In this document: positions 481 to 36,055 of the stretch, in pieces
Layout: every line of letters begins with the position of its first letter
Position numbering within the stretch: position 1 is the first letter of the stretch
Assembly (NCBI GenBank): GCA_963748625.1
Contig: CAVVJT010000010.1
Span: 288,001-352,000, forward strand
Direction of reading: 5' to 3'
Length of the DNA: 64,000 bases
Source of the DNA: an uncultured Chloroflexia bacterium
GTDB lineage: Bacteria; Chloroflexota; Limnocylindria; Limnocylindrales; CSP1-4
Translations under genes and position numbers: made by a program
Notes under the pieces: generated by a model
Database searches by the model: none
What the model was told of the DNA's origin: nothing
The model's input: only the letters and a program-made list of their open reading frames with translations

Positions 481-3400
481 TCACGGCAGGGTCCCCCCGC
501 CGAAGTCGTCGAAGCGGGCGTCGCCGGGCGGGTTGCCGGTGCCGGCGATCCGGACGCCGACCTGGCCGCCGCCGGATGCGCCGGCCCAGGTGCCGGCAGG
601 GACGCTCACGCTGCCGACCTGGATGCCGTTGCGGAACACCGTGATCGTGCCGTCGGCGAGCGCCCTGGCCCCGAGCTGGTCGCCCGCGTAGAACACGGCC
701 GGGAATGAGGCCCGGTCGACGAGGACGCCGCCCGATGCCTTGGTCCTGACCTGCACGGCGCCGGCACCGCGGTTGTAGACGACCTCGATCAGCGACGCGG
801 TGGTCGCGGTCGTCCCGGTCCCGGTCCGCTTGAGGATCAGGCCCTGCTTGGTCGCGGCCGCAGGCCCGACCTGGGTGAAGGTGAGGTACGCCTCCTGGTT
901 GGCCCCGAACGCCGTCGCATTGCGATAGACGTCGCCGCCGAGGCGGACCTGGACCGCGCTGCCGTCGATCCGGAAGTTGTTCTGGTTGGTGGAACCGGTC
1001 CACGGGTTGCCGAGGGCCCCGTTGGCCCGGTTGAAGGCGTCGAGGAGGCCGGCCTGCGGGAAGGCGAGCGGGGCCGGCACAGCGGCCGGGGCCGGGACTC
1101 CGGCCCGCTCGTCCGCACCGATGTCGATGGCCCCGCCGTTCGGGCGGCCGTCGTTGTCGATGTCCCACGCAGGGGCGATGACGCCGGACTTTGAGGCCGC
1201 GCCTGCGTCAACCGCCGGTGACGTGGCGGGGACGTGGTAGTCCCCGAGCGTCCCTGCGGGTGCGTCGACCGCGACCAGGAGGGCCCCGACGAAGTTGGGA
1301 TTGGTCCGCCACGGGGAGAACGAGACCGACAGGTCGAACTCGCTCGCCACGGACGGGTCGGCGTCGACGACGTTCGTCGGGCTGGCGATCACGCCCGCGT
1401 GGCCCTGGGACTGCAGGATCGAGTTGGTCGGGCTCAGGAGCCCGGCGCCATCGGAGACGCCGAGGTCCCAGGTGTCGATCGGCGTCGCGTCGCCGGGGAG
1501 GCCGATGCCGACGACCGTCCCACCGGAGCGGGTGCCGGCCCGGTTGTCCCAGAAGACGTTGTTGAACAGGAGCGGCTCGCTGAAGGTCGGCGAACCACCC
1601 GGCAGCGTCGCCTGGAGCAGGTCGCTGTTGGCGCCCGTGGAGAGGCCGGCGGGCGCCGCCTCACCCGTGCTCGTCGCGGCGGTGGCCGTGGTGATGTTGT
1701 TCATGACCGTGTTGTTGATGACCCGGACAGCCGGGGCGTCGTCGATGGCGATGCCGCCGCCTTCGTGGGTCGACACGTTGTTCACGATCATGTTGTTGAC
1801 GACGTTCATCGGGTAGTTGCCGGCCATCAGGAACCGGATCCCGCCGCCGTCATCGTTGGCGATGTTGGCCTGGACCAGGTTCTCGCGGATGTCCACGGGC
1901 CCGGTTCCCGGCGAGAGGATCAGCGGGTCGGCCGGGAGCTCGCCGGCGATCATGATCCCCGCGCCCTCGTCGTAGGAGCTGTTGAACCAGATCCGGTTGT
2001 GGTCGATTGAGCCGTTCGGGCTGTACCCGTAGACGGACACGCCGCCGCCGTACTCGGCCGAGGAGTTGCCGCAGATGTCGTTGCCGGAGACGGTGTAGCC
2101 ATCGCTGCCGGCGAAGAGCCCGATCCCGCCGGCGAGGTTCGTCCCGCCGTTGGTGACCACGCGGTTGTTGGCGATCCGGACGTGGTCGTTGTGCTGGCTC
2201 GTGTCGGGCTCGGGCAGGTTCGGCGTGCCGATCCGGATGCCGCCCGCGTAGGAGCCGCTGTTGCTCTCGATCACGTTGTTCGTGATCTGCAGGTAGCGGG
2301 CGTAGGCATTGACGAAGACGCCGCCACCCTGGGTGATCGCGTTGGCCGGAAGCCCGGTCGGGCCGCCGCCGATCTGGTTGATGTTCGTGGGGAAGTTGGA
2401 CTGGTCGCCGCCGCGGACGTCGAAGCCGTCGATGCCGGCCCGGAACGCGGAGCCGTACTGGCTCGTCGTCGCCGCGAAGACAGAGACGACAGGACCCTCG
2501 TAGACCGTCTGGTTGCCGACGCGGGTGAGCGCGTCGATGGCGGTCCGCCAGTTGTCGGCCAGGGCGGTGTCGCCACCGAAGGCCGAGCCGTCGATGACGG
2601 AGCCCTGGACGGACCCGTCCGCGCTGCCCGGGCCCACGCCCTGCAGCTTGACCGGCGAGTGGACGATCAAGTTCTCGTAGTACGCGCCGCGCGGGTTGAG
2701 CCGCGGGTTGGACGGCGTGGCGAGGCCCGGGTAGACCACGATGAGGTCGTCACCTGGGCTCGCAGCCGCGGCGTCGAGCGCATCCTGGACCGGATGCGGC
2801 GGGTTGCCCTCGTCGTACTGGACGGCCGGGAACTGGTTCGGACCGCTGAGGCCGGGGCCGACCTCGTACAGGTTCGGCTCGTATCGGCTGTTCCCGATCG
2901 TGCCGCCGCCGAAGTTGTCGAAGCGGGCATCGTTGGCCGCCGTGGTGCCGGCGAAGCGGACCGCGATCCGGCCGCCACCGGTCACGAAGGCGGTCGCACC
3001 AGTCGTCGGGATGGCGACCGGGGCGCCGATCTGGGCGCCGTTCTTGAACACGCGGACGGTGCCGTCCGCGAACGCCCGTGCGCCGAGCTGGTCACCCGCC
3101 GCGAAAGTCGCCGCGATCGCGGGCCCACGGTTCGTGATCGTGCTCGAGCCGGCGTTCTTCGTCTTGACCTGGACGGCGTTGCTGGTGCCGTTGAACACGA
3201 CGCTGATCCAGGAGGACGCGTTCGCGTTGGGGCTCGCCGAGCTGCCGGTGAACTTGAGGAGCACACCCTGCTCGGCGGCTGTGGCGGTCTTGGTGAAGGT
3301 GAAGTAGGCCTCCTGGTTGGGACCGAAGCCCGTGCCCGGCAGCCAGGTCGCGTTGCCCTGGCTCGACGTCGAGTTCGTCAGCGCCTGGGCCTGGTTCGTG

Positions 3401-6400
3401 AAGCCGACGAGACTGGTCGGTGTGACCCGGAACCGGCTCGTGGTGTTGCCGTCGGCGCCCCAGCTCGCGCCGAGACCCTGCGCGGTGCTCGCAGTGCTGC
3501 GGTTGAAGTCGTCAAGCACGGCGGTGGCCGGGAACACGTCCTGACCGAGCACGTGGAAGGTGATCCCGTTCACGGTGCGGGCGCCCGACGTGGAGGTGAT
3601 GGCGAGCTGGTGCGGCCCGACCGGGGTGGTGGCCGGGACTGTGACGTCGATGTGGCTGGCACTCCACGACGTCGTCGGCAGGGCGACCCCGTCAAGCGCC
3701 ACGGTGCCGGCGGCCGCGCCGAAGCCCTGGCCGTCGATGCTGAACGACTTGGTGCCGGCCGTCCGCATGTCGACGTACGGCCTGGAGACTGCGTACAGCT
3801 CGGGCGCGGTCGGTGCCGCCGGGTCGTTCACGCGGCAGACGAGCGGCCCGTTGAACTGGGCGCCCGGCAGCTGCGCGTTGACGCCCAGCTGGGTCGGGGC
3901 CGTGTCGGCGGGCACGATGAGGCCGGCGAAGACCTCGAACTCGGCCGCGATCGTCCGGTATTGCGGGTTGTAGTTCAGGTTCAGCCGGCCCGGGACGCCC
4001 GGGTCGTTGCCGACCATCCGATAGAGGTTGGCGCAGACGCCCGATGGCGTCGGGCAGTTGATCCGGTTCGTGGACGGCAGGAGGACGTCCGCGAGGCCGT
4101 TGTAGTCGGTCTCGACGGTCGTCACGAGCCGGTTGGCCCAGTCGTAGACGCCCACCGGGTTGAAGGCCATGCCGGCCTTCTCGCCGTAGAGGATCGACTT
4201 CGGGTCGGTGGAGAAGTTGAGGTCGTCGACGTTGTAGAAGAAGAATCGGCCCGGGAGCGGCACGTCGGTGAAGACGTTGAACATCGGCACGATCGACTTG
4301 CCGTTCTGCAGGTCGACGAGCTTCGTGTCGCACAGCGGGCGTGCCGTGCCCTCGTAGGGCGAGGCACCGATGTCGACGAAGGTCGGGTTGGCGGTGGTCT
4401 CCGAAGCAGGGGCGCTGATCGGCGCGCCTCCGTTGCCCGACGGATCGTCCAGGCTCACGGGGCCGTAGCCGTCGGTGCCGAAGTCGGCCACGTCGACCTG
4501 GTGGAGGGGGCCCGCGCAGGCGGGCGGCGGAACCTGCGGCACGAACGTGTCGCCGTTCCCGATGTTGATGTCCTCCTCGCGGGTGACCTTGTAGACCGGG
4601 TCGCCGTTCTCGTCGGTCTTGCTGGCGAGGTCGAGGTGGACGAGGTAGCCGTCCGCCGGGAGGGCATCGAACGCGACCTCGCCCACGGCGTACACGTCGC
4701 CGACCGCGAAGGTGTTGGCCGTGCCACCGGTCAGGGCAGCCACGAGCGTGATCCGCGTCTCGGAGTTGACCGTGGCGACCGTGCCCGTGGAGCCGTCGGT
4801 CGCGTTGACGACGGGATCCCCGGCAACCACGCCATCCGTGATGAACGTCGCGGTGGCGTCGTTCATGACGGTCGCCGACGGCGTGGCCGTCGCCGCATGG
4901 ACCACGTAGGCGTCGCCGGCCTTGAAGATGTTCGGGTCGAAGTCCGTGCCGCCGGCAAGCGGCGCGACGAGGGTGATCGTCTGGCCGGTGCGGCTCGCGA
5001 CGATGCCGCTCGAGCCGTCGGTGGTGTTGAGCACGATGTCGCCCGCGGCCACGCCGTTCGCGATGAACGTCGCGGTCGGGTCGGTCAGGACGGTGGCGGA
5101 GTCGGGGGCGATGACCTGGTAGGCGTCGCCGGCCGCGAACACGTTCGGGGTGACAGCGTCCGTATTGCCCGTGAGCGGCGCGACGAGGGTGATCGTCTGG
5201 CCGGTGCGGCTCGCGACGATGCCGCTCGAGCCGTCGGTGGTGTTGAGCACGATGTCGCCCGCGGCCACGCCGTTCGCGATGAACGTCGCGGTCGGGTCGG
5301 TCAGGACGGTGGCGGAGTCGGGGGCGATGACCTGGTAGGCGTCGCCGGCCGCGAACACGTTCGGGGTGACAGCGTCCGTATTGCCCGTGAGCGGCGCGAC
5401 GAGGGTGATCGTCTGGCCGGTGCGGCTCGCGACGATGCCGCTCGAGCCGTCGGTGGTGTTGAGCACGATGTCGCCCGCGGCCACGCCGTTCGCGATGAAC
5501 GTCGCGGTCGGGTCGGTCAGGACGGTGGCGGAGTCGGGGGCGATGACCTGGTAGGCGTCGCCGGCCGCGAACACGTTCGGGGTGACAGCGTCCGTATTGC
5601 CCGTGAGCGGCGCGACGAGGGTGATCGTCTGGCCGGTGCGGCTCGCGACGATGCCGCGTCGAGCCGTCGGTGGTGTTGAGCACGATGTCGCCCGCGGCCA
5701 CGCCGTTCGCGATGAACGTCGCGGTCGGGTCGGTCAGGACGGTGGCGGAGTCGGGGGCGATGACCTGGTAGGCGTCGCCGGCCGCGAACACGTTCGGGGT
5801 GACAGCGTCCGTATTGCCCGTGAGCGGCGCGACGAGGGTGATCGTCTGGCCGGTGCGGCTCGCGACGATGCCGCTCGAGCCGTCGGTGGTGTTGAGCACG
5901 ATGTCGCCCGCGGCCACGCCGTTCGCGATGAACGTCGCGGTCGGGTCGGTCAGGACGGTGGCCGAGTCGGGTCCCGACGCGGTGCCGCTCGCGCGGACGA
6001 TCGGGGCCAGCGTGCCGCTCGCGCGGACGATCGGGGCCAGCGTGCCGCTCGCGCGGACGATCGGGGCCAGCGTGCCGCTCGCGCGGACGATCGGGGCCAG
6101 CGTGCCGCTCGCGCGGACGATCGTGGAGATCGTGCCACCGGCGCGGAACGCGCCCGTGACGGAGCCGCCGGAGACCGCGCAGATCGGGGCGGACGGGTCG
6201 GTCGCGACGAGCTCGCCGTTGAAGCAGCCGTCGCCGAAGCCGTAGTTGCCGTCCACCGCGGCGCCGAAGTTCGCGTCAGGGGTTCCCTGGTCCGAGGCGT
6301 AGGTACCGAACTGGACGCCCATCAGGGGGCCTTCGAGGCAGCCCTTGTTGGCGCCCACCGGCAGGACCTGCTGGTCGGTCGGGTAGACGAGCGCGTTGCC

Positions 6401-20295: not shown

Positions 20296-20311
20296 GGTGC
20301 ATCATGGCGGC

Positions 20312-20821
20312 ATGACGAACGATGAGAGCCTTGTCTCCCTGCGCACCACGGGCGAGGACCACCACGCCCGCCTGATGCCGCACGTTGACAGGCTGCTCCT
20401 CCTCGCGGAGGCCGTTGGCCACGTGGACTGCCAGGCACTCCACGCCCTGTTCGACGAGGAGTACCGCTTCGTTGCGGGCCAGCTCGTGCCGCACATGGAC
20501 AGCGTGGAGACGTCTCTCTACGGGCGCCTGGAGGAGCTGATGGGCGGCCGCCACACGATGGGGCCGATGCGCGAGGAGCACGCCACGATCCGCGCGCTCG
20601 TCGAGGAGCTGGGCACGTACCGCTCGCATGCGAACGACTGCTCCTGGAGCGGTCCCGAGGGGATGGCCCTGCGTCGCGCGCTGTACCGGCTCCATGCACT
20701 GCTCAAGATCCACCTTGCCGAGGAGGAGCTGTACCTGGGCGTGCTGGACCGGAATCTGACGCCCGAGGAGAAGGACCGCCTGGCCCGGGGCCTCGACCAC
20801 GCGATGGCGGAACCGCTCTAG
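20312..20821 (+). CDS. Hemerythrin-like (HHE) domain protein
   Basis: DHHARL, PHMDSVETSLY, MREEH, IHLAEEELY. Confidence 0.88.
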   Translation: MTNDESLVSLRTTGEDHHARLMPHVDRLLLLAEAVGHVDCQALHALFDEEYRFVAGQLVPHMDSVETSLYGRLEELMGGRHTMGPMREEHATIRALVEELGTYRSHANDCSWSGPEGMALRRALYRLHALLKIHLAEEELYLGVLDRNLTPEEKDRLARGLDHAMAEPL

Positions 20822-21345: not shown

Positions 21346-21831
21346 CTACCCGGCGACCGGGTGGGCCAGCGCCGCGGAGATCGCGTCCGTCATGTCGTCG
21401 TTCACGCCGTGGTCGATGAGGCGCAGGTAGGCCTCCTCCTCGGCCAGGTGGACCTTGAGCAGCGCGTACAGCTGGAACAGGACGCGCCGGATCGCGAGCG
21501 TCTTGCCCAGGGTGAGGTGGTCGCCCGCCTGGTCCACGAGCCGTCCGAAGTCCTTCGAGAGGCTGCGGATCGCATCGTGCTCGCGGCGCATGGGCGCCAT
21601 CGAGTGGCGGTTCTGGAACATGCGCTCGAGCTCAGGGTAGAGCGCGCGCTCGGCGGCATCGACGTGGGGCACGAGCGTCCCGTCGAGGAACGAGCGCATC
21701 TCCTTCACGCCGGCGTCGATGGCCGCCTTGTCGCTCCCGAGGAGCGAGTCGGCGACGGCCGGAATGCGGTCCACATTGACGAGCAGGCGCTCGTGGTGCT
21801 CGTGCGCGACCTGGGGCAGGCTCTGGCTCAT
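21346..21831 (-). CDS. Hemerythrin-like (HHE) domain protein, last gene of the Hdr/Qmo-like operon
   Basis: EHHERL, PHVDAAERALY, MRREH, VHLAEEEAY; ATGA overlap with the QmoC-like gene. Confidence 0.9.
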   Translation of the reverse strand: MSQSLPQVAHEHHERLLVNVDRIPAVADSLLGSDKAAIDAGVKEMRSFLDGTLVPHVDAAERALYPELERMFQNRHSMAPMRREHDAIRSLSKDFGRLVDQAGDHLTLGKTLAIRRVLFQLYALLKVHLAEEEAYLRLIDHGVNDDMTDAISAALAHPVAG

Positions 21832-23044
21832 GACGAGACCTCCTTCCGGGAGAGGGCCACGAAGAACAGCGCCACGGGCCGGTACACGGCATGGGCGAGC
21901 TTCATGAACGGGGCGAGGAGCACCAGCTCCATCGCGGTGGCGACGTGGACCAGGAAGATCCAGTAGCCCCACATGGGCGCGCTGGGCAGGTACAGGGCGA
22001 GCTCGATGGCGAAGCCGGTCGCGGCCACCACCCAGAGGAGGGCCAGCAGCATCCAGTCGGCCACGGTCGAGGTCAGGACGGACCGGTTGGCGGCCCGGTA
22101 GCGGTCGATGATCAGCACGGTGGTGCCGTACAGGAGCACGGCGCCGGCGACGGTGCCCAACAGGCGGACCGGGTACCAGAGAGGCACCGGGGTGCCGGTC
22201 TCCTTGATCCCCAGCAGCGCCAGGCCGTAGTCCAGGCCGGTGGCCGCGAGCAGGCCCAGGAAGCCCCACACGACCATCATGTGCACGAGCGCACGACGGC
22301 GGTACCACGGGACTGCGAGCGAGGCTCGGGGTCGGCTGCGCACTCCTTGCGGAACACGGCCTGGCCGAGCGACTCGCGGCCGATCGAGGCCCACAGCGCG
22401 CTCCCCGTGCGTCCCAGGGCGGCCCGCGAGCCGAGGACGGACGACCACGTCACGCCCTCACGGCGGCCGATCGCGCGGGCCATGGACGCGACGCCCACGA
22501 GCCCCGCGAGCACCACGAGGATCATCACGACGATGCCCATGTTGTGGATGATCTCGGCCGGGATCCACTCGAAGATGGCGAGGGTCTCGCCGTCCATGGG
22601 TCCGCGGGCCGCATACATGAACGCCGCGAAGAACAGCGCGAGAACCACGGCGATGATCGTGGCCACGATGGGCTGGGTGTACATCGCCCGGGCGAGCCGG
22701 GTCTTGTCGTACTGCCCGATCGCGTAGCGGCGCGTGGCCGCCATGAACTCGGACGGGTCGGCCTTGGTGGGGCAGGACTCGGAGCACTCGCCGCACTGGT
22801 AGCAGGCCCAGAGCTCCTTGGAACCCAGCAGCGCGTCCTTCATGCCCACCTGGGCGTAGCGGATGATGCGGCGCGGGAACGTCCCGTCGGTCTGCGCGAG
22901 CGGGCACGTGGCGGTGCAGGTGCCGCACGAGAAGCAGGCCGACACGTCGGCCGCGCCGTACTTGAGGATCTCCGGGTAGAGACCCATGTCCACGGGTGTG
23001 GCAGTGGTCGCCGGGGCGCCGGCGGGAGCAGTGGTCGCGGTCAT
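21828..23044 (-). CDS. QmoC-like protein: HdrC-type 2x[4Fe-4S] domain plus cytochrome-b-like membrane domain (frameshift at ~22320)
   Basis: CFSCGTCTATCP, FPRR, WACYQCGECSESCP; TM helices with His (IIHN, LVHMM, LVHV, PFMKLAHAVYRP). Confidence 0.82.
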
Positions 23045-23289
23045 CAGGACACCCGCCCGGTGGGCTCGTACTGGAAGTAGCCGTCGGCGTCGGAGCCCTT
23101 GATCTCGGCCAGCCACCCGTAGCGGCGCAGGCCCATGACCCAGAACACGGTCTCGTGGGTGGGGGCGCCGATGGCCTCGGCGATCTGGGGGACGGTCAGC
23201 GGGCCGCCGGCGAGGGCGGCGAGGATCCGGGGGCGCATGACGGGCTCCTCCCGGATCACCTCGCGGGGATCACGGTTGAGGGTGGACAT
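23044..23289 (-). CDS. Small winged-helix protein within the Hdr-like operon
   Basis: RILAALAGGPLTVPQIAEAIG...LRRYG...GYFQY; overlaps both neighbours. Confidence 0.75.
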   Translation of the reverse strand: MSTLNRDPREVIREEPVMRPRILAALAGGPLTVPQIAEAIGAPTHETVFWVMGLRRYGWLAEIKGSDADGYFQYEPTGRVS

Positions 23290-25061
23290 CAGACGGGCAC
23301 CTCAGCCAGGCTCTCGATCATCGCGGTGACTTGGGCGTCGGTGTAGCCCAGGAGGTCGATGGCGTTCTCGGGACAGATGGGGATGCAGCCTCCGCAGCCC
23401 TTGCAGCTGGTGGGGCTGATGACCGCGAAGTGGCGGTCCCCCTCCTCGGCCATGGAGATCGCGTCGTACGGGCAGGCCGTGAGGCAGTCGCCGCAGGCCG
23501 TGCACGTGTCGGGTTCCACGATCGCGACCAGCGGGTCGAGCTCCGTGAAGCCCTTCTTGAGGATCGCCGCACTCTGGGTGACCGCGGCCAGCGCCTGGAT
23601 CACCGACTCGGACGAGGTCTTGGGGCCCTGGCAGGCGCCGGCGATGAGCACGCCGTCCACCACGGTCTCCACGGGCCGGAGCTTCGGATGGATCTCGTTG
23701 AAGAACCCGTCGGCGCCCTTCGGCAGCTTGAGCACGTCGATCAGTGGCTGGTTCTCGCGCGGGACCATGCCCGTCACGAGCACCACCAGGTCCACCGGGA
23801 TCGCGAGCTCGGTACGCTCGGTGAGGAGGTCGCGGACGGTGACGGTCAGCCCGCCGCCGGCCCGCTCGGCCACCACCGGCGGCTCGTCGTTGTCGAACTT
23901 GAGGAAGACGGAGCCGAGATCGCGCGCCTCGGTGTAGAGCGGCTCGAACTTGCCGTACGTGCGCATGTCCCGGTAGAGGTGGAACTGGCGGATGGACGCG
24001 TCCAGCCCGGCGACCTGCACGGCCGTCTGCACGGTGGACGCACAGCAGAACCGCGCGCAGTACCCGTTGGAGCAGCCGGCGGTGTTGCGGCTGCCGACGC
24101 AGTACACGTAGGCCACGCTCCGGACCGGTCTCCCCTCCCAGGCCAGGCGGCCGCCGGCCGCGCCGTCCACGAGGCTCTTGAACTGCGACAGGCTGACGAC
24201 GCCGGGAAGGCCGAAGCCCAGCTCGCCGTCCCCGGGGGTGTACTCGTCGAAGCCCGTGGCCACGATGACCGAGCCGACGGCCACCTCGATGGTGCCCGCG
24301 CCCTCGCCGCCCACGCGGACGGTCATCCGGTAGTTGCCGAACGAGCCGGCCTTGCCCACGACCTCGGCGCCGGTGAGCACCGTGATCGACGGTCGGGCCT
24401 TCACCTTGGCCACGAGGTCGGCGATGAGCTCGCGCCCCTGGCGCCCCTGGGGGTACATGGTGCCGAAGTCACGGACCCAGCCCCCGAGCACCAGCTCGCG
24501 CTCGACCAGGGTGACCGCGAGGCCGATGTCGGCGAGGCCGACCGCGGCCCGGAGGCCCGCGATGCCGCCGCCGATGACCAGGGTGTGCGGGATCGTGTCC
24601 ACGACCATCGGGTCGAGCGGCACGGTGTTGCGCGTGCGCCCGATCCCCGCCTTGACGAGGGCGGTCGCCTTGGCCGTGGCTCCCTCGTGGTCGTCGGTGT
24701 GGACCCACGAGCACTGCTCGCGGATGTTGACCTGGGTGTACTCGTAGGGGTTCAGGCCGGCCCGCGCCGCCACGCCGCGGAACGTGTAGGTGTGGAGCTT
24801 GGGCGAGCACGAGGCGACGACGAGACCGTCGAGACCCTGGGCCCGGATGTCGGCCTCGATCTCCTGCTGGGAGGCGTCGGAGCAGGCGAACATCGTGGTC
24901 TTCGACACGACGACGTCGCCCGAGTCCCGGATGTCCTCGATGACCTTCTCGACATCGACGTAGTCGCTGATGTTGCCGCCGCAGTGGCACACGTACACGC
25001 CGATCCGGCGCTGTCCGTCCTCGCCCGCCTCGTCGACGGGGGTGAGGGTCACGTCGCTCAT
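23289..25061 (-). CDS. Heterodisulfide reductase subunit A-family flavoprotein (HdrA/QmoB-like)
   Basis: RIGVYVCHCGGNI, ASCSP, NIREQCSWVH, GGGIAG, CVGSR, YCARFCC, HPKLRP, GACQGPK, C-terminal 2x[4Fe-4S]. Confidence 0.93.
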   Translation of the reverse strand: MSDVTLTPVDEAGEDGQRRIGVYVCHCGGNISDYVDVEKVIEDIRDSGDVVVSKTTMFACSDASQQEIEADIRAQGLDGLVVASCSPKLHTYTFRGVAARAGLNPYEYTQVNIREQCSWVHTDDHEGATAKATALVKAGIGRTRNTVPLDPMVVDTIPHTLVIGGGIAGLRAAVGLADIGLAVTLVERELVLGGWVRDFGTMYPQGRQGRELIADLVAKVKARPSITVLTGAEVVGKAGSFGNYRMTVRVGGEGAGTIEVAVGSVIVATGFDEYTPGDGELGFGLPGVVSLSQFKSLVDGAAGGRLAWEGRPVRSVAYVYCVGSRNTAGCSNGYCARFCCASTVQTAVQVAGLDASIRQFHLYRDMRTYGKFEPLYTEARDLGSVFLKFDNDEPPVVAERAGGGLTVTVRDLLTERTELAIPVDLVVLVTGMVPRENQPLIDVLKLPKGADGFFNEIHPKLRPVETVVDGVLIAGACQGPKTSSESVIQALAAVTQSAAILKKGFTELDPLVAIVEPDTCTACGDCLTACPYDAISMAEEGDRHFAVISPTSCKGCGGCIPICPENAIDLLGYTDAQVTAMIESLAEVPV

Positions 25062-27847
25062 GCCGGCACCATCACGATCTGGGGCAGTGCGGTCTTCGTG
25101 CGCTCGAGGTGCGCGGCGACCTGGGAGGCCGCGGCGCCCGCGTGGACGATGGAGTCCGCGATGTCCTTGGCGCCCGACGCGGCACCAGCCACGAAGACGC
25201 CAGGGATGCTCGTCGCACCCGGGTTGACGTCCTCCTCTGGTTCCGCGACGTACTGCCACTCGTCCACGGCGAGCTCGCCCACGTTGAACAGGCGCTCCGC
25301 GTCATGGTTGGGCTGGACACCGACTGCGAGCACGACCAGGTCGTACTCGGCCTTGGTGACCGCCCCGCTGTTCTCGATGTCCTCGTAGGTGAGGACAAGG
25401 TCACCGTTCGGCTGCTCGGTGACAGCCGCGACACGACCCTTGATGTAGGTGGCGCCCATGGCCTTGGCCTGCTCGTAGAACTCGTCGTACCGCTTGCCTG
25501 GGGCCCGGATGTCCATGTAATGGACGGTGATCTCGGCCACGGGCAGGGCGCCCATGAGCAGCTGGTTCTGCTTGATGGAGTACATGCAGCAGAACCGCGA
25601 GCAGAGCGGGTTGCCCACCTGCTCGTCACGGGAGCCCGTGCACAGGATGTACGCGATCCGGTCCGGGACCTTGCCGTCCCCGGGGCGCAGGATCGTGTTG
25701 AACGGCCGCGTCGGCGCCAGGAGGCGGTCCATCTGCATGCCGGTGATGACGTTCTTGTAGGCGCCGTAGCCGTACTCGGGCTTGAGGTCGGCCGGGAAGA
25801 GCTTGAAGCCGGTGGACACCACGACCGAGCCCACCCGCAACTGGAGCTGCTCATCGCGGGCGCGGAGGTCGATGCAGCCGTCCACGGGACACGCGTGCAC
25901 GCACTCGTTGCACTCCGCGCACGTGGCGCAGTCGATGCAGCGGCCGGATGAGCGCCGGGCCTCCGCCTCCGTGAGCGGCGCCTCGATCTCGTGGAAGTCC
26001 GCGGGGTCCGGCTGGAGATCCATGCCGTCGGGCGTGGGCGCCGTGAAGGCGTACGAGGTCTGGCGCGCCAGCACCTGGGCCTTGTCCACCACCGGCAGGC
26101 GGTCGTCCCAGTCGCCGAACTCCCGGCCGTTGAGCCAGGCGTCGATCTGGTGGGCGGCCTTGCGCCCCTCCCCCACCGCCCGGGTGATGTCGGTGGGGCC
26201 GTTGACAGCGTCGCCGGCGGCGAACACGTGCGCGGCAGCGGTCTGGCAGGTCGCCTTGTCGGCGTCGAGCCGGCCGTTCTTGAGGACGGCCATCCGGCTG
26301 CCGAACATGCTGGTGTCGGCGGTCATGCCGATCGCGGCGATGATCACGTCGGCATCCAGGGTGGCGAACTTGCCGGGGACCGGGATCGCCTGGCGACGGC
26401 CCGATGCGTCGGGGTCGCTCAGCTGCATCTCGGCACAGCGCAGGCCCGCGACGGAGCCGTCTGCCTTGCCCATGACCTCGACCGGGGCGACGAGGAGGCG
26501 GAAGCGCACGCCCTCCTTCTCCGCATCGACCGACTCGACATGGTGGGCGGGCATCTCGGCCCGGGTCCGGCGGTAGGCCACGGTGACCGATGCAGCGCCC
26601 AGCCGCCGGGCGACCCGGGCGGCGTCCATCGCGACGTTGCCGCCACCCACGACGATGACCCGCTTGCCGGCCAGGTCCATCTGCTCGCCGAGGTTGACCT
26701 TGCGCAGGAACCCCGTGGCGCCCATCACGCCCAGGCGGTCCTCGCCCGGGACGCCCAGCGCGCTGTCGCGATGGGTGCCGGTGGCGACCAGGACCGCGTC
26801 GAAGCCATCGTCCTTGAGGGCGGCCGGATCGTCCACGCGGGTGCTGGTGACGATCTCGACGCCCAGGCCGGTCACGTTCTCGATGTCCCGCTCGACGACG
26901 GCGTCGGGCAGGCGGTAGGACGGGATGCCCAGGCGCAGGAACCCGCCCGCGACCGGTGCCGCCTCATGGACCTTGACCGCGTAGCCGAGCTTCGCGAGCT
27001 GCCAGGCAGCGGTGAGGCCGGTGGGCCCGGAGCCGACGATCGCGACGCGCTTGCCATTGGCGGCCGGGCGCTCGACGCCGTTGTCCGCGCCGGAGGCGTC
27101 GTGCTGGTCCGACGCGAAGCGCTTGATGCGCCGGATGGGCAGCGTGCCCTCGACCGAGCCGCGCGTGCACTCGCCCTCACAGGGGGCGTAGCAGGCGCGC
27201 CCGAGCGTGCCGACCAGCGGCGTCGCCTCGAGGACCAGCCGGAAGGCCTCCTCGTCGAGGCCGCTGCGGACCAGGCTCACGTAGCCGTGGGCGTTGATGC
27301 CGGCCGGGCAGGCGAACGAGCAGGGAGAGCTGCCCTGGCGGTCGATGACCGCCTTCTTCGGGACGGCCTGGGGGAACGTGATGTGGGCCGCGCGCCGGGC
27401 GACCAGGTCCGCATTGAACTGGTCGGGCACCGCGACCGTGCAGGCGGTCTCGCACTTCTGGCAGCCGGTGCACGAGTCGATGTCCACGAACCGCGCCTGC
27501 TTGGTCACAGTCGCGGTGAAGGTCCCGTCAGCCAGGGTCTTGATCTGGTCCACGTGGCTGTACGTGAGCGGCGTGATGTTCGGGTGGTGGATCGAGGACG
27601 CCATCTTGGGCGTCGAGATGCAGGAAGCGCAGTCAAGCGTGGGGAAGACCTTGGACAGCAGGATCATCTTCCCGCCGACGCTGGCCTCCTTCTCCACCAG
27701 CAGGACCTTGTAGCCCATGTCGCCGAGCTTGAGGGCGGATTCCATGCCGCCGATGCCGGCCCCGACCACGAGCACGTCGTAGTCGAGCGCGGCGGGAGCC
27801 TCGGGCAGGGTCGCGCAGGTGGCGATCGGATCGAGCGTGTCGGTCAT
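25058..27847 (-). CDS. HdrA-family protein with inserted GltD-like NAD(P)H oxidoreductase module (HdrL-like)
   Basis: GAGIGG, KVFPTLDCASC, CTGCQKCETAC; insert PCSFACP...GRACYAPCEGEC, GSGPTG, GGGNVAMD..YRR; then CTGSRD, CSRFCCMYS, GAKDI. Confidence 0.92.
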   Translation of the reverse strand: MTDTLDPIATCATLPEAPAALDYDVLVVGAGIGGMESALKLGDMGYKVLLVEKEASVGGKMILLSKVFPTLDCASCISTPKMASSIHHPNITPLTYSHVDQIKTLADGTFTATVTKQARFVDIDSCTGCQKCETACTVAVPDQFNADLVARRAAHITFPQAVPKKAVIDRQGSSPCSFACPAGINAHGYVSLVRSGLDEEAFRLVLEATPLVGTLGRACYAPCEGECTRGSVEGTLPIRRIKRFASDQHDASGADNGVERPAANGKRVAIVGSGPTGLTAAWQLAKLGYAVKVHEAAPVAGGFLRLGIPSYRLPDAVVERDIENVTGLGVEIVTSTRVDDPAALKDDGFDAVLVATGTHRDSALGVPGEDRLGVMGATGFLRKVNLGEQMDLAGKRVIVVGGGNVAMDAARVARRLGAASVTVAYRRTRAEMPAHHVESVDAEKEGVRFRLLVAPVEVMGKADGSVAGLRCAEMQLSDPDASGRRQAIPVPGKFATLDADVIIAAIGMTADTSMFGSRMAVLKNGRLDADKATCQTAAAHVFAAGDAVNGPTDITRAVGEGRKAAHQIDAWLNGREFGDWDDRLPVVDKAQVLARQTSYAFTAPTPDGMDLQPDPADFHEIEAPLTEAEARRSSGRCIDCATCAECNECVHACPVDGCIDLRARDEQLQLRVGSVVVSTGFKLFPADLKPEYGYGAYKNVITGMQMDRLLAPTRPFNTILRPGDGKVPDRIAYILCTGSRDEQVGNPLCSRFCCMYSIKQNQLLMGALPVAEITVHYMDIRAPGKRYDEFYEQAKAMGATYIKGRVAAVTEQPNGDLVLTYEDIENSGAVTKAEYDLVVLAVGVQPNHDAERLFNVGELAVDEWQYVAEPEEDVNPGATSIPGVFVAGAASGAKDIADSIVHAGAAASQVAAHLERTKTALPQIVMVPA

Positions 27848-28320
27848 GCCTGGGGCTCCTGGACGTCCTTGGGCTTCGCCGGGCCCATCGCGACCAGCGC
27901 CGCGGAGAAGGTGTTCATGTGCTTGGTGAAGGGTTCGGCGCAGACCGAGCAGATCGCCGCGACCCGGACTCGGCTCGCGTCCATCCCGCGCTCCTTGAGC
28001 GCCTTCTGGGCCGTCTGGACGACCTTGTTCGACCGCTTCGCGCAGTCGTGGAGGTAGGAGCACTCCTCGCCGTCGGTGGCGACGAACACACCATCGAACC
28101 CGGAGTCGAGCGCATGCAGGATCCAGGACGGGCGGATGCCGCTCGTGCACGGGAGCCCGATGACGTTCACGCCGGGCGAGTAGTGGAAGTGCGCCGACCC
28201 GGCCAGGTCGATGCCGGGATCGGAGATGGTGTTCGTCGAGAACACGAGGATCCGCGGGACGAAGGTCCCGGCGGAGCCTGCCGGCTCGGCGGCGACGGGT
28301 GCGGTCATCGGTGCGCTCAC
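27844..28320 (-). CDS. MvhD/FlpD-family iron-sulfur subunit (variant)
   Basis: GIDLAG...Y, LPCTS, GFDGVFV, ECSY...C, RVRVAAICSVCAEPF. Confidence 0.85.
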   Translation of the reverse strand: MSAPMTAPVAAEPAGSAGTFVPRILVFSTNTISDPGIDLAGSAHFHYSPGVNVIGLPCTSGIRPSWILHALDSGFDGVFVATDGEECSYLHDCAKRSNKVVQTAQKALKERGMDASRVRVAAICSVCAEPFTKHMNTFSAALVAMGPAKPKDVQEPQA

Positions 28321-28392
28321 TGGTGGTGGGAGGGGGCCATCGCGACGCTCCCCGAGGAGGGCGCCGCGACGGCCCGAGGGATGGATTCCGGG

Positions 28393-28653
28393 TTACTTGC
28401 CCTTGACCACGAAGACGCGGTCGTAGCCGTCGGACTCGAGGACGCCCAGGAAGTTGTGGCCGACCTTGGCGGACCAGGCGCTGATGTCGGCCTTGGTGCC
28501 CGGGTCCGTGGACCAGATCTCGATGGTGGTGCCGACCGGGACGCCGGCCATGCCCTTCTTGGCCTCGAGGAGGGGGCCGGGGCAGGCGGTGCCGCGGGCG
28601 TCCACGATGGTGGCGTCGGCGATGGTCTCGAGCTCTTCGATGGTTGCGGTCAT
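28393..28653 (-). CDS. tusA: TusA-family sulfur carrier
   Basis: VDARGTACPGPLLEAKK, STDPGTKADISAW. Confidence 0.9.
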   Translation of the reverse strand: MTATIEELETIADATIVDARGTACPGPLLEAKKGMAGVPVGTTIEIWSTDPGTKADISAWSAKVGHNFLGVLESDGYDRVFVVKGK

Positions 28654-28704
28654 GGGATCGGTTCCTCCAGGGAAGTCAGGGTGTGATTGGCTGCGGTGCA
28701 CGCA

Positions 28705-29112
28705 CTAGATGAAGACGAGCTGGCCCTCTTCGGCGAGCATCAGGAAGGTGGCGATGCCCCCCTCCGAGTCGATGATGGGATCCAGCTCGGAGAGCGGGAT
28801 CCCCAAGACGTCCATCGAGCCGGTGCAGGCGAGGATGCGCACCTCGCCCAGCTCCTTGGCCATCCGGAGCGACTCGAGCCAGTTGATGGACCGGGTGCCG
28901 CCGACGGGGCGGTTGGTGCCGACCACGGTGGCATCCCATGCGAGTCCCAGGTCCTGCTCGATCCGCTCGGTCCGGAACGCGTCGAGGGCCCAGTACTGGA
29001 CCAGGATGTTGACCGGCCGGTCCATGGCGGCAGCTCCGGCCGCGAGTGTCGCGGCCGCGTGCAGCTTGTCCGCGGTACCGGAGAACAGGACCATGTTGAG
29101 GGTGTCGCTCAT
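28705..29112 (-). CDS. DsrE/DsrF-like sulfurtransferase
   Basis: MVLFSGTADKL...GAAAM, AKELGEVRILACTGSMDVLG, GGIATFL...LVFI. Confidence 0.87.
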   Translation of the reverse strand: MSDTLNMVLFSGTADKLHAAATLAAGAAAMDRPVNILVQYWALDAFRTERIEQDLGLAWDATVVGTNRPVGGTRSINWLESLRMAKELGEVRILACTGSMDVLGIPLSELDPIIDSEGGIATFLMLAEEGQLVFI

Positions 29113-29537
29113 CGAGGGGTCACCTGATTGGCGCCGGTGACAGCCGGCATCGGGGTGGTAGGGATGGGGGTTCCCAGCGGGGTGGTGAACCCGGGTGCTT
29201 CGCGGTCACCGGCGGCCGCGGCCAGGCTGCCCATGGCGGAGAGCCTCCGGACGATCACGTCCCGCATCAGCGCGCAGGCCGCGAGGATCTCGGGGTCGGC
29301 CAGCCGGTAGCGGATCGCGCGGCCGTCCCTCGTGGCGTCCACGAGGCCTGCGGCCCGCATCGCGGCCAGGTTCTGGGACACGGCCGCCTGCGGCAGGTCG
29401 AGTGCGGCGCACAGCTCGCGGACCTCCATCGGCCGCACGCCCAGCAGGTGGACCATGCGCAGCCTGTGGCGTCCGGCGAGCGCGCGGATCAGCTCGATCT
29501 GGATGCGGTCGATCTCGGCGGTCGCGTCGTCATACAT
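29109..29537 (-). CDS. ArsR/SmtB-family transcriptional regulator
   Basis: RLRMVHLL...VRELC...VSQNLAAMRAAGLV..TRDGRAIRYRL; Cys in RELC and AACAL. Confidence 0.9.
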   Translation of the reverse strand: MYDDATAEIDRIQIELIRALAGRHRLRMVHLLGVRPMEVRELCAALDLPQAAVSQNLAAMRAAGLVDATRDGRAIRYRLADPEILAACALMRDVIVRRLSAMGSLAAAAGDREAPGFTTPLGTPIPTTPMPAVTGANQVTPR

Positions 29538-29549
29538 GATGTGACTATG

Positions 29550-29568
29550 TATATGCGTTTAGCATATA
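29550..29568. promoter_or_regulatory. Putative ArsR operator overlapping the promoter
   Basis: Perfect 7-5-7 inverted repeat TATATGC-GTTTA-GCATATA in an AT-rich island, 12 bp from the ArsR start codon. Confidence 0.7.
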
Positions 29569-29878
29569 TAAGGCGTGCGACAGTTGTCACGAGATTCGGG
29601 TGCCGTTGGGGGCGGGAAAGAGCGGGACCTTCGTCCCGGGCCAGGGGCCGGGAGCCCGCGGCGCCGAGCGCGGGGTCCACAGGTCTGGTGGGCCCTGGTG
29701 GGGGGCGGCCGGGCTCTGCGAGTGCGCGGTCGGGCGCCCGTGGGGCGACCCGGCCCCCGCGTGCAAGCGGACCGGCGCGCGTGGGGCGACCCGGTCCACG
29801 TATCGCGCAGTCCGGCCCCCTTCTCGCGCGGTCCGGCCCCCGTTACGCGCAGTCCGGCCGACGGTTCGCCCATTCCAG

Positions 29879-30054: not shown

Positions 30055-30675
30055 TCAGCGGGCGCTCCTGCATGCGACCAGCACCGCATCGACAGGCACC
30101 CGCTCCCCCGCCCCGGCGTCGCCTCGCCGGACGGTGTCCTGCCGGGCAACGTCGAACCCGGCAGGCAGCGCCGCGGCGATCTCGGCCGCGGTGAACAGGA
30201 CGTCAGGATCCTGCGGACCGCCCACGCCATCGGTCAGATTGGTCCGATCGTGGCCCACCACGAGCAGCGTGCCGCCGGGGGCAACTGCGGCGGCGGCAGC
30301 CGCATACACCGCGTCACGCTCGGTCGCGGGCAGGTGGATGAACATCAGCAGGACGAGGTCGAAGGCGACGGCGGGTGGCGCCCAGGTGAGCAGGTCGGCC
30401 TGGACCCAGTCGACGGTGAGGCCGTGAGCCTCCGCTCGCGTCGCCGCTCGAGCAAGTCCGACGGCGGAGAAGTCCACCCCGGTCGCCGTCCAGCCGGCCG
30501 ATGCAAGCCAGGTGGCGTTGCGGCCATCCCCGCAGCCGAGGTCGAGGGCGGTCCCCGGCACGAGGCCTGCCGCCACCTCGACGAGCGTGGGATCAGGGGC
30601 ATGGTCCTCGATGGGATCGCGCGCGCCATGGCGCTCGTCCCAGAGCTCCTGGCGGGTGCGCGGAACCTCGCTCAC
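30055..30675 (-). CDS. Class I SAM-dependent methyltransferase
   Basis: WDERH, ALDLGCGDGRNA, GVDFS, FDLV, APGGTLLVVGH. Confidence 0.9.
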   Translation of the reverse strand: MSEVPRTRQELWDERHGARDPIEDHAPDPTLVEVAAGLVPGTALDLGCGDGRNATWLASAGWTATGVDFSAVGLARAATRAEAHGLTVDWVQADLLTWAPPAVAFDLVLLMFIHLPATERDAVYAAAAAAVAPGGTLLVVGHDRTNLTDGVGGPQDPDVLFTAAEIAAALPAGFDVARQDTVRRGDAGAGERVPVDAVLVACRSAR

Positions 30676-31157
30676 GAGTGCGATCCCTGCTCGCGCTCCG
30701 CTCCAAGGCGATCCGCGCGTGCGCGAATCGAGCGCGGAAGCGTGACCCACTCCAGGTACAGCGCCTCGAACTCCGCGATCAGGCGCGCCCGCTCCTTCAT
30801 CACGGCGGCCCACTCGTCAAGCGCGGTCAGTCCGGCTTCGGTCATCGTGTAGTCACGGCGAGCGGGGCCGCTACCGGTCGCCCACTGCGAGCTGACCAGG
30901 CCCTGCTTCTCCAGGTCGCGCAGGGTCCGGTAGACCTGGCCGACATCGACCGACCCGTTGGTGATGCCCAGCTCCGCGAGCTGCCCGACGATCGCGTAGC
31001 CGTGCTCACTGCCGCTTGCGAGCAGCGTCAGCACGAAGGGCTCCATCCAACGGTGGTGGATGCCCACCTGCGCCCATCCACGGTGCACGGGCGTCCCGTG
31101 GGCATCGTGTGCGGACGCGATCTCGAAGCCGCGTTCGCGGGCGGGCTGGTCATCCAT
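30672..31157 (-). CDS. PadR-family transcriptional regulator
   Basis: HGYAI, GQVYRTLRDLEKQGLVSSQW, GPARRDY. Confidence 0.9.
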   Translation of the reverse strand: MDDQPARERGFEIASAHDAHGTPVHRGWAQVGIHHRWMEPFVLTLLASGSEHGYAIVGQLAELGITNGSVDVGQVYRTLRDLEKQGLVSSQWATGSGPARRDYTMTEAGLTALDEWAAVMKERARLIAEFEALYLEWVTLPRSIRARADRLGAEREQGSHS

Positions 31158-31263
31158 TGGCGCGGAGCATAGATGGTCAGGACACATGGGGCGAGGCGAT
31201 TCCCGGTGGCGTCGATGCCGGAACGACCCCCGCGACCATCGTGGCTTTCGGTAGCCTGCGGGA

Positions 31264-34239: not shown

Positions 34240-35127
34240 ATGTCATCCCGTCGCTCCCCCAACCCGTCCGCCCTCGACGTTCCGCATCCCTCGGACCTCC
34301 TGTCCCTCGCCGCGCACATCGCCGAGGACGAGGAGGCCTTCCACGGCCTCCTCCCAGACCGCTCGCTCGTCGCGCACTTCGTGGACGGCGTGGTCTCCCT
34401 GCTCTTCCCTGACGGCCGCCAGGCGCCACGGACCCCGACCGGCATCCGTGCCGAGCTCGAGGCACGGTGCCGTGCCCTGACCCCCGTCCTCGCCCCGCTC
34501 CGCGACCGCATTCCGGCCTCGCCCGACGACCTCGCCGAGAAGTTCCTGGACATGCTCCCGGCCATCCACGAGGCACTGAGCCTTGACGCCGAGGCCATCG
34601 AGGCCGGCGACCCCGCAGCCCACGGCACTGCAGAGGTGGTCCTCGCCTACCCGGGCTTCCAGGCGCTCGCCTACTACCGGGTCGCCCATGCCCTGCATCT
34701 CGAGGGGATCCCGCTCGTCCCGCGGATGATCTCCGAGATCGCGCATGGCCGGACCGGCGTGGACATCCACCCGGCGGCCTCGATCGGGCGCAGCTGCTGC
34801 ATCGACCACGGGACCGGTGTCGTCATCGGTGAGACGGCGATCATCGGCAACGACGTCAAGCTCTACCAGGGCGTCACGCTGGGCGCGCTGTCGGTGAGCA
34901 AGCAGGCGTCCGGGACCAAGCGCCACCCGACCATCGAGGACCGCGTCGTCATCTACGCCAACGCGACCGTCCTGGGCGGCGACACCGTCGTCGGCTCCGA
35001 CTCGGTCATCGGCGGCAACGTCTGGCTGACCCACTCGGTGCCCCCCAACTCGCTCGTCTACCACCAGAGCCAGGTCAAGGTGCGAACCGTGACCGAGATG
35101 GCCGACCCCATCGACTTCGTGATCTGA
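34240..35127 (+). CDS. cysE: Serine O-acetyltransferase
   Basis: [46 protein letters not shown]. Confidence 0.93.
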
Positions 35128-35140
35128 GAGGGAGTCCAAC

Positions 35141-36055
35141 GTGCTCTACAACAGCGTCCTGGAGCTCATCGGCAACACGCCGCACGTCCGCATCAACAAG
35201 CTCTACGACCCCCGGGTGACCGTATACGCGAAGCTGGAGCGCCAGAACCCGGGCGGGTCGATCAAGGACCGCATCGGCCTCTCGATGATCGAGGACGCCG
35301 AGGCGGCAGGGATCCTGGGCCCGGACTCGGTGATCGTGGAGCCGACCTCGGGCAACACGGGTATCGGCCTCGCGCTCGTGGCGGCCGTGAAGGGCTACCG
35401 GCTGATCCTCGTGATGCCGGAGTCGATGTCAATCGAGCGCCGCAAGCTCATGCAGCTGTACGGCGCGGAGCTCGACCTCACGCCGCGCGAGCTGGGCATG
35501 AAGGGCGCGATCGCCCGCGCCAGGGAGATCGTCGAGGCAACGCCCGGGGCCTGGCTGCCGATGCAGTTCGAGAACCCGTCCAACCCCGCCGTCCACCGCC
35601 GGACCACCGCCGAGGAGATCGCGACCGACTTCCCCGACGGCCTGGACTACATCGTGACGGGCGTCGGCACAGGCGGCCACATCACCGGCGTCGCCGAGGT
35701 GCTCAAGGAGCGCTGGCCGAACCTGAAGGTGTACGCGGTGGAGCCGACGCTCTCGCCGGTGCTCTCCGGCGGCGCGCCGTCCCCGCACCCGATCCAGGGC
35801 ATCGGGGCCGGGTTCGTCCCCGCCGTCATGCGCACCGAGCTGCTGGACGGGATCATCCAGGTGGCCCCGCCCGACGCGTTCGCGTGGGCCCGCCGCTCGG
35901 CCGCCGAGGAAGGCATCCTGGTGGGGATCTCGTCGGGCGCGTCGCTCGCCGCGGTTGCCCAGCTGCTGCCCGAGGTCCCCGACGGCGCGCGGATCCTGGC
36001 CTTCACCTACGACACCGGCGAGCGCTACCTCTCGGTGGACGCGCTCTTCGCCTGA
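35141..36055 (+). CDS. cysK: Cysteine synthase A
   Basis: [44 protein letters not shown]. Confidence 0.95.

Follow-up and report, generated by a model that had tools for sequence, protein, structure and literature searches.

We describe an operon for flavoproteins, iron-sulfur proteins and sulfur carriers in a 64,000-nucleotide stretch of DNA (hereafter the window) from an uncultured Chloroflexia bacterium (assembly GCA_963748625.1, contig CAVVJT010000010.1, positions 288,001 to 352,000). On the minus strand of the window, positions 21346-29537 hold a clean string of genes in the order arsR, dsrE-like, tusA, mvhD, an HdrL-type gene, hdrA, a winged-helix gene, a qmoC-like gene and a hemerythrin gene. 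The operon is real and conserved, it is not a canonical Qmo, Hdr or sHdr system, and it fits the description of type II Qmo together with the architecture of HdrL. Its gene content, which comprises an NAD(P)H site, two flavins, a series of Fe-S clusters, an MvhD-type entry protein and a quinone-facing membrane domain, points to a Qmo/Hdr-like complex anchored in the membrane and placed under the control of ArsR.

The reading that we favor, with a rough probability of 0.35, is that this complex links the NAD(P)+/NAD(P)H couple, the menaquinone/menaquinol pool and the sulfur held by TusA and DsrE, and that it most likely works in the oxidative direction. Electrons at the level of reduced sulfur or thiols would enter via MvhD, and a flavin would split them between menaquinone (downhill) and NAD(P)+ (uphill) in a reversible reaction, with NAD(P)+ at the low-potential exit and the quinone at the high-potential exit. 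Both the electron bifurcation and the sulfur chemistry of the complex are activities that we infer from the sequence.

Gene order and domain structure of the operon

Domains were assigned by Pfam and NCBIfam profile scans of the open reading frames (ORFs) in the window, and all operon domains were recovered in the places and in the order that the original prediction had listed. Its statement that the genes mostly overlap also holds, since six of the eight gene junctions, as read from the sequence, overlap by 1 or 4 nt; these include the 4-nt overlap of the arsR stop with the dsrE start, and the start of the downstream hemerythrin gene, which overlaps the qmoC-like stop. The two junctions without overlap are DsrE/TusA and TusA/MvhD. 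The G+C content of the window is 70-74%, which explains why raw ORF lists are crowded.

Two flavoproteins of the HdrA type form the core of the operon. The larger, an HdrL-type protein of 929 aa (25058-27847, minus strand; Pfam Fer4_20 and Pyr_redox_2), combines HdrA with a GltD-type module. In alignments to solved HdrA chains, its residues 14-171 correspond to HdrA 135-291 and its residues 638-916 to HdrA 288-567, while residues 169-649 make up a complete GltD/NfnB-type module. This NAD(P)H module is thus nested within the inserted ferredoxin domain of HdrA, and the protein has neither the N-terminal nor the C-terminal domain of HdrA. It displays the architecture that defines HdrL, an HdrA FAD domain with a GltD/NfnB-type NAD(P)H:FAD module. 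The predicted HdrA with a GltD-like insert is therefore present, and it is of a known kind: representative searches showed that HdrL-type proteins are common, in forms of approximately 900, 1100 and 1500 aa, and the fusion of HdrA and GltD is the known HdrL layout of Desulfobacterium autotrophicum and its relatives (Strittmatter et al., 2009, PMC2702500), as described in passages of PMC12142623.

The second flavoprotein, a complementary HdrA of 590 aa (23289-25061, minus strand; NCBIfam HdrA2 461 bits, below the cut-off), aligns with its residues 17-248 to HdrA 11-242 and with its residues 257-587 to HdrA 324-654 of the solved chains. It consists of the N-terminal Fe-S domain, the FAD domain and the C-terminal 2x[4Fe-4S] ferredoxin domain, and lacks the inserted ferredoxin domain as well as the FPTLDCxxC motif. 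The domains of a complete single-chain HdrA are thus divided between two chains, which would pair as a heterodimer in which each accessory HdrA domain is present once. Both flavoproteins score below the curated HdrA cut-offs, with the HdrA and HdrA2 models of methanogens as their best family matches in NCBIfam. The preceding gene encodes an MvhD-like (FlpD) [2Fe-2S] electron-transfer protein of 158 aa (27844-28320, minus strand; PF02662, E 1.5e-26), five cysteines of which are invariant in all 30 aligned sequences. In the HdrA of methanogens, according to the work on 5odc, electrons from the donor arrive through MvhD, and those of low potential leave through the inserted ferredoxin domain. The Nfn and Stn complexes, in which GltD/NfnB-like modules are bifurcating, are among the closest solved relatives.

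The membrane subunit is encoded by a frameshifted qmoC-like gene (21828-23044, minus strand). A Fer4 dicluster (Fer4_8) and a transmembrane segment lie in the N-terminal piece at 22277-23044, and a NarI-like part (Nitrate_red_gam) in the C-terminal piece at 21828-22310. The HdrC-cytochrome b fusion of the original prediction is thus right as to its domains but not as to a single open frame, the two halves being in different frames in the window. The break is located at approximately 22325-22335, beside a run of four C (22328-22331), and falls between ...ECAADPE and ...SLAVPWYRRR in an alignment with 12 orthologs, all 12 of which encode 395-416 aa in one uninterrupted frame. Apart from the broken frame in the window copy, the protein has the architecture of QmoC, an HdrC-like domain with two [4Fe-4S] sites fused to a NarI/HdrE-like membrane domain with four histidines, the latter being invariant in all 13 rows of the alignment. 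With these two sites and its four-histidine membrane domain, the subunit would connect the complex to menaquinone. The two window pieces obtained 110.7 and 93.2 bits with the NF038018 qmoC model, for which the cut-off is 300 bits, and the intact ortholog at locus L011 matched the model end to end (2-360 of 360) with 210.4 bits, also below that cut-off.

One missing base would explain the frameshift, and the break reflects either an inactive copy or a 1-nt assembly error. It is possible, although we lean the other way, that the frameshift is real and the operon of this genome a decaying pseudogene cluster. The break is present as sequenced while all 12 aligned orthologs are intact, the patchy distribution of the operon (see below) is consistent with frequent loss, and the HdrL ortholog in one relative (G013) is degenerate, with in-frame stops. 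The other eight genes of the window copy are, however, intact and 70-90% identical to their orthologs, and a single-base break at a run of four C is a typical assembly error. Furthermore, a second assembly from the same genus, a metagenome-assembled genome (MAG; G016, locus L013), has two such breaks in the same operon, which favors an assembly error.

As to the two relatives themselves, the HdrL ortholog of G013 (locus L026, contig C19) shows 42-46% identity for the greater part of its length and contains in-frame TGA stops, its neighbors being 70-89% identical, and in G016 (contig C8) the qmoC-like and dsrE genes are both split between frames. No reads from the source organism were found among public runs, for which the best share of words was 0.15. 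The mapping of four runs covered relatives only and is not informative on the frameshift; among the indels listed, none was placed at 22325-22335.

The last gene of the operon encodes a hemerythrin-domain protein of 161 aa (21346-21831, minus strand; PF01814, E 2.8e-9), and a second, convergent gene for a hemerythrin-domain protein of 174 aa is located at 20297-20821 on the plus strand (PF01814, E 4.5e-8). In 18 of 19 other QmoC-type loci, the qmoC-like gene is immediately followed by the former in the same orientation, and the latter is found near the operon in most loci of the genus.

Conservation of the operon and its sister form

Homologs of the HdrL-type protein with 74-94% identity are numerous and are assigned by their sources to MAGs of Chloroflexota and 'Candidatus Limnocylindrales'. 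Of the 16 loci fetched from the genus, 15 share this gene content and gene order, the sixteenth (L025) being of a sister form, and loci of the QmoC type were also identified in two further families of the class. Among genomes that are at least 85% complete, an HdrL-type protein (E <= 1e-150) was identified in 22 of the 151 genomes of the class; across the phylum, with distant forms included, the count was 51 of 401.

We compared a clade of 32 loci with at least 51% identity in HdrL, 31 of which are in the tree, to 13 outgroup loci. The loci include 20 that were additionally fetched and nine informative ones from a pattern search, which returned 80 loci, mostly with plain GltD and 10 with a full HdrL-type match. 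In profile searches, TusA was detected in all 32 clade loci as compared to none of the outgroup loci, and an ORF of the DsrE family in 26 of 32 as compared to none; three of the six clade loci without DsrE (L028, L111, L116) are truncated at the end of a contig. The linkage of TusA and DsrE to these flavoproteins, on which the original prediction depended, is thus conserved.

These counts bear on a sulfur-independent role in redox balancing, a Fix- or Nfn-like bifurcation between NAD(P)H and quinone (plus ferredoxin) in which TusA and DsrE would serve regulation, maturation or protection. All the redox modules needed for such a role are present without a sulfur-active site, the bifurcating Nfn and Stn complexes are among the closest solved relatives, and the 13 outgroup loci contain sets of HdrL, HdrA and MvhD without TusA. 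On the other hand, an accessory role would hardly account for the presence of TusA throughout the clade, and of DsrE in most of it, in several families and in another phylum, and the nearest solved relatives of the ArsR branch include the thiol-based sensors HlyU and SqrR. We rank this role third and consider it quite unlikely.

In the sister form, which was identified at 12 loci, the winged-helix gene is followed by genes for a 99-aa HdrC and a protein of approximately 320 aa with one CCG domain. These loci include one from outside the phylum, in a MAG of the Thermoleophilia, and two that are second copies in genomes of the genus to which the window belongs. The term HdrB-less therefore describes one branch rather than the family: the operon in the window indeed has no CCG protein, but the sister operons have one, and the genome itself has an HdrB in a separate hydrogenase cluster on another contig (see below). 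QmoC stands where the sister operons have HdrC and the CCG protein, which suggests that in the QmoC-type branch a quinone would take the place of a disulfide-type couple. Moreover, TusA is constant while QmoC and HdrCB alternate, so that TusA most likely works with the core of MvhD, HdrL and HdrA and not with the swappable module. A predicted complex of TusA and MvhD obtained a score of 0.00, which has no bearing for or against their interaction.

In a quick maximum-likelihood analysis with 41 HdrL-type proteins, the TusA-linked clade stood apart from the outgroup with a support of 100 in the Shimodaira-Hasegawa-like approximate likelihood ratio test (SH-aLRT). The QmoC-type proteins formed a single clade of 19 rows (SH-aLRT 99), which supports a single origin of the QmoC-type operons, and the HdrCB-type proteins formed two clades, which join the QmoC-type clade in a three-way polytomy. 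Several genomes contain more than one copy. Two QmoC-type operons are present in G019 (L023, L024), G119 has an HdrL copy nearest to the QmoC type (contig C26, 84% identical) as well as an HdrCB-type operon (L119), and G508 has two HdrL-type matches with 71% and 62% identity.

One study has two RNA libraries with contigs that are 85-99% alike across the whole operon (all 30 bins); as carry-over of DNA is possible, they are at best a weak sign of expression in relatives.

Sulfur carriers, regulation and the direction of electron flow

The TusA protein of the operon (28393-28653, minus strand; PF01206, E 3.7e-18, 65.6 bits) is 86 aa long, or possibly 102 aa if translated from a GTG at 28701. Its C24-P25-G26-P27 motif, which is the Cys-Pro-x-Pro signature of sulfur carriers, is invariant in all 30 sequences. 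Upstream of it, the short DsrE-family protein (DrsE_2) of 135 aa (28705-29112, minus strand; PF13686, E 2.2e-13) has a conserved cysteine in the aligned motif A-C-(T/S/A)-G-S.

The 81-aa protein encoded at 23044-23289 on the minus strand contains no cysteine and belongs to no Pfam or NCBIfam family. It is predicted to form a winged helix (AlphaFold2 pLDDT 90), with matches to the folds of SmtB, MarR and Z-alpha that are generic only; its gene is kept between hdrA and the gene for the HdrC domain in both operon types, as seen in an alignment of 29 sequences. We rejected it as a sulfur carrier or known Hdr subunit, given that it has no cysteine, no family and only generic fold matches.

The first gene encodes an ArsR/SmtB-family regulator of 142 aa (29109-29537, minus strand; PF01022, E 4.8e-10; NF033788, 71.3 bits), the nearest solved relatives of which are HlyU, Rv0081 and SqrR. 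The persulfide sensors SqrR and BigR have two conserved sensing cysteines, one in helix 2 and one in helix 5. Here, Cys88 is conserved in all 18 aligned orthologs and in a paralog, while Cys43 is found in the window copy only, and the BigR model gave 37.5 bits as compared to a cut-off of 155 bits. With one conserved cysteine, and the first of the pair not conserved, a dithiol persulfide sensor of the SqrR/BigR type was rejected for this regulator.

The upstream region (29538-29590, minus strand) contains an AT-rich palindrome, TATATGC-N5-GCATATA (at 29545-29575), directly upstream of the arsR start, which is a candidate ArsR operator. The strict pattern occurs once in the 4.6-Mb genome, at this site, and a similar element, ATATATG-N7-CATATA, is recognizable in the arsR upstream region of at least 12 of the 17 orthologous loci. 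The same palindrome was not found at the paralogous ArsR on contig C4.

We also searched the rest of the genome, which is 98.3% complete with 7.7% contamination. No AprA was recovered above the cut-off genome-wide (the best match, outside the window, has 21.4 bits as compared to 641.75), no match to DsrA, no ATP-sulfurylase domain of the Sat type and no NIR_SIR domain of sulfite reductases. The genome-wide search for aprA, dsrA and sat, proposed as a check on the original prediction, thus bore it out. So did the window, where no CCG-domain HdrB, AprA, DsrA or LbpA was found: the CCG, GcvH-like and sub-threshold AprA matches all fall outside it. The GcvH-family matches of the genome are one full match, located 98 kb from the window on its contig, and one weak match on another contig. 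No hydrogenase was found among the 29 window ORFs scanned with Pfam, including 22 of the 44 that had been called by G+C content at third codon positions (GC3). One PAPS_reduct gene and two molybdenum domains of the sulfite oxidase family were identified in the genome, together with MenA above the cut-off and a haem-copper oxidase, which speak for a quinone pool and for respiration with oxygen; MqnA was not found genome-wide.

Two other regions, both on contig C4, are relevant to the interpretation. At approximately 111-118 kb, a canonical-looking cluster contains hdrC, hdrB (two CCG matches), hdrA (789 aa), mvhD and the large subunit of a [NiFe] hydrogenase, so that the genome as a whole is not HdrB-less. 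At approximately 731.7-734.8 kb, a paralogous cassette encodes an ArsR (49% identical), a DsrE (48%), a TusA, a long DrsE_2 protein and a second TusA, and it is directly adjoined by a type III sulfide:quinone reductase (SQR). Its location beside SQR connects such cassettes of ArsR, DsrE and TusA with sulfide and sulfane sulfur. A single contig of a relative (G024) contains both the operon and SQR, which indicates that both are native to the lineage.

Across the class, SQR was found in 14 of the 22 operon-bearing genomes and in 49 of the 129 others (the resulting tally of 63 of 151 counts one genome, G486, that is flagged as unpublished). Within the family, no association was seen, with SQR in 9 of 15 operon-bearing genomes and 24 of 34 others, and SQR was therefore rejected as an obligatory partner of the operon.

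The direction of electron flow was weighed on the standard potentials, which are approximately -270 mV for S0/HS-, -320 mV for NAD(P)H and approximately -74 mV for menaquinone, and on the low-potential exit that the inserted ferredoxin domain provides in the HdrA of methanogens. Only the oxidative direction is downhill with all three sites in use, and for this reason it was ranked first. Ranked second is a reductive role, in which NAD(P)H, possibly together with menaquinol, reduces the sulfane sulfur on TusA and DsrE to sulfide, which could serve detoxification, the use of sulfur as an electron sink or the supply of sulfide to CysK. The NAD(P)H module is built in, and no NIR_SIR sulfite reductase and no Sat-type ATP sulfurylase are found in a genome with cysE and cysK; the organism may thus be incapable of the usual reduction of sulfate or sulfite to sulfide and may depend on reduced sulfur. 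The reaction would, however, be uphill at these potentials with quinol as a co-donor, it would run counter to the SQR of this organism, and far simpler enzymes could reduce persulfides with NAD(P)H alone. The genes cysE (34240-35127) and cysK (35141-36055) are present approximately 5 kb from the operon, as originally noted, and this too has been a point in favor of the reductive role, but as a linkage it does not stand: cysE is near the operon in five loci and cysK in one, all in close relatives, and we rejected the two as functional neighbors. Taken together, a reductive role seems to us rather unlikely.

Several points weigh against the oxidative, three-site reading that we prefer. The QmoC-type branch has no recognizable sulfur-active site, as it lacks a CCG domain, which is a weakness of every sulfur-linked reading, and MvhD is to our knowledge solely an electron carrier. 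The qmoC-like gene is frameshifted in the window copy, the distribution of the operon in the class is patchy, SQR shows no association within the family, and ArsR does not have the conserved cysteine pair of SqrR and BigR. The functional steps beyond domain content are, in addition, deduced from the protein sequences.

A more far-reaching form of the preferred reading appears doubtful as a whole. It states that a bifurcating Qmo/HdrL complex would oxidize the sulfur delivered by TusA and DsrE, passing electrons to menaquinone and uphill to NAD(P)+, and that QmoC and HdrCB would be interchangeable outputs of one core. If true, a widespread and undescribed type of cytoplasmic sulfur-energy enzyme would make NAD(P)H with electrons of sulfide-level sulfur, with no need for reverse electron flow or for Dsr, Sox, Apr or HdrB.

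Other genes near the operon include a PadR-family regulator (30672-31187, minus strand), which is found near it in 18 fetched loci at varying positions; in many relatives it lies between the two hemerythrin genes, and in the window on the arsR side. An S-adenosylmethionine-dependent methyltransferase gene (30055-30813, minus strand) with weak TehB/TPMT-family matches adjoins the operon and recurs in six fetched loci, two of which are of the HdrCB type (L117, L027). Farther away, an open frame of 1697 aa with a GC3 of 0.95 extends over 481-5574 on the minus strand, and two long ORFs with high GC3 on the plus strand (59983-61710 and 61299-63701) overlap by approximately 400 nt in different frames, which could reflect another assembly frameshift or an over-long upstream extension.

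Comparison with known systems

Complexes of the Qmo/Hdr type have a central part in sulfate reduction, methanogenesis and sulfur oxidation. The operon represents a defined, conserved and testable case, with a core that carries an NAD(P)H site, a swappable quinone/disulfide module and two sulfur-carrier partners, in abundant uncultured bacteria of soil and freshwater. If the carriers are substrates, it would be an overlooked route that joins sulfur trafficking to the quinone and pyridine-nucleotide pools; if they are not, it would be a new bifurcating NAD(P)H:quinone module. Its value is lower for this genome alone, because the gene for the membrane subunit is broken as sequenced. According to passages of the main text of PMC10504309, the role of Qmo-like complexes outside sulfate reducers is an open question. 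A full-text search of the literature found no paper describing a TusA/DsrE-linked operon; the supplements of PMC10504309, which may list such genes, lay outside that search.

In canonical Qmo, MvhD is fused to QmoB, and in this operon it is encoded by a separate gene. The operon otherwise resembles the type I QmoABC of sulfate reducers and green sulfur bacteria in its two HdrA-like flavoproteins, in its membrane subunit of the fused HdrC-like and di-haem type, in its MvhD-type module and in its link to the quinone pool. It differs in that one flavoprotein carries an NAD(P)H module, that TusA and DsrE are constant neighbors, and that the partnership of type I Qmo with AprAB and Sat is not seen, since neither AprA nor Sat was found in this genome. 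A canonical QmoABC serving APS (adenosine 5'-phosphosulfate) reductase, or a canonical Hdr or sHdr system, is suggested by the layout resembling QmoA, QmoB and QmoC and by best family matches to models of HdrA, HdrC and QmoC. We nevertheless regard it as highly improbable, given the absence of AprA, DsrA and Sat from the genome-wide matches, the intact QmoC-like ortholog at 210 bits as compared to the 300 bits required, the lack of a CCG protein in the operon and of an LbpA-like gene nearby. This agrees with the distinct complex of the original prediction.

The sHdr systems, which have a cytoplasmic sulfur context, need HdrB1 and HdrB2 (CCG), HdrC1 and HdrC2, and the lipoate-binding protein LbpA, and we know of none with QmoC, MvhD or an NAD(P)H module. 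The operon shares with them the linkage of TusA and DsrE-family carriers to Hdr-like proteins, but it does not contain the HdrB1/B2, HdrC1/C2 and LbpA set, and the structure of sHdrA (6tjr) is a weak match.

Similarities to the MvhADG-HdrABC complex of methanogens (PDB 5odc and 8rvu) are the fold and clusters of HdrA, MvhD as the protein through which electrons enter, and the di-cluster domain of the HdrC type. Instead of a homodimer, two incomplete HdrA proteins would here form a heterodimer, and the operon has a quinone-linked membrane domain in the absence of a hydrogenase and HdrB. HdrABC is characterized by an HdrB with two CCG domains encoded together with HdrA and HdrC; no protein of the operon has a CCG domain.

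The HdrL of D. autotrophicum and its relatives is likewise an HdrA with an added GltD/NfnB-type module that adjoins MvhD, according to the passages cited above. The protein described here has 929 aa, with the N-terminal and C-terminal HdrA domains on a separate HdrA, while many of its relatives have 1100-1500 aa, and the same passages do not report HdrL genes together with TusA, DsrE or QmoC.

Two further groups are described in main-text passages of PMC10504309. In the QmoAB-HdrCB systems of Gram-positive sulfate reducers and some sulfur oxidizers, QmoC is exchanged for a soluble HdrC and a CCG protein. The same kind of swap is seen here within one family, between operons of the QmoC type and of the HdrCB type, but it takes place in a TusA-linked, HdrL-containing clade without Apr, and the HdrB-like protein encoded in the sister operons contains just one CCG domain. 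In the type II QmoABC, qmoAB is closer to hdrA than to type I qmoAB, and this group is recognized phylogenetically and functionally unassigned (Neukirchen et al., 2023, PMC10504309). By this description the operon fits type II Qmo, for which the best matches of both flavoproteins, to HdrA and HdrA2 models of methanogens, are indirect evidence, and it adds to the description a linkage to TusA and DsrE and an NAD(P)H module, which the main-text passages do not mention.

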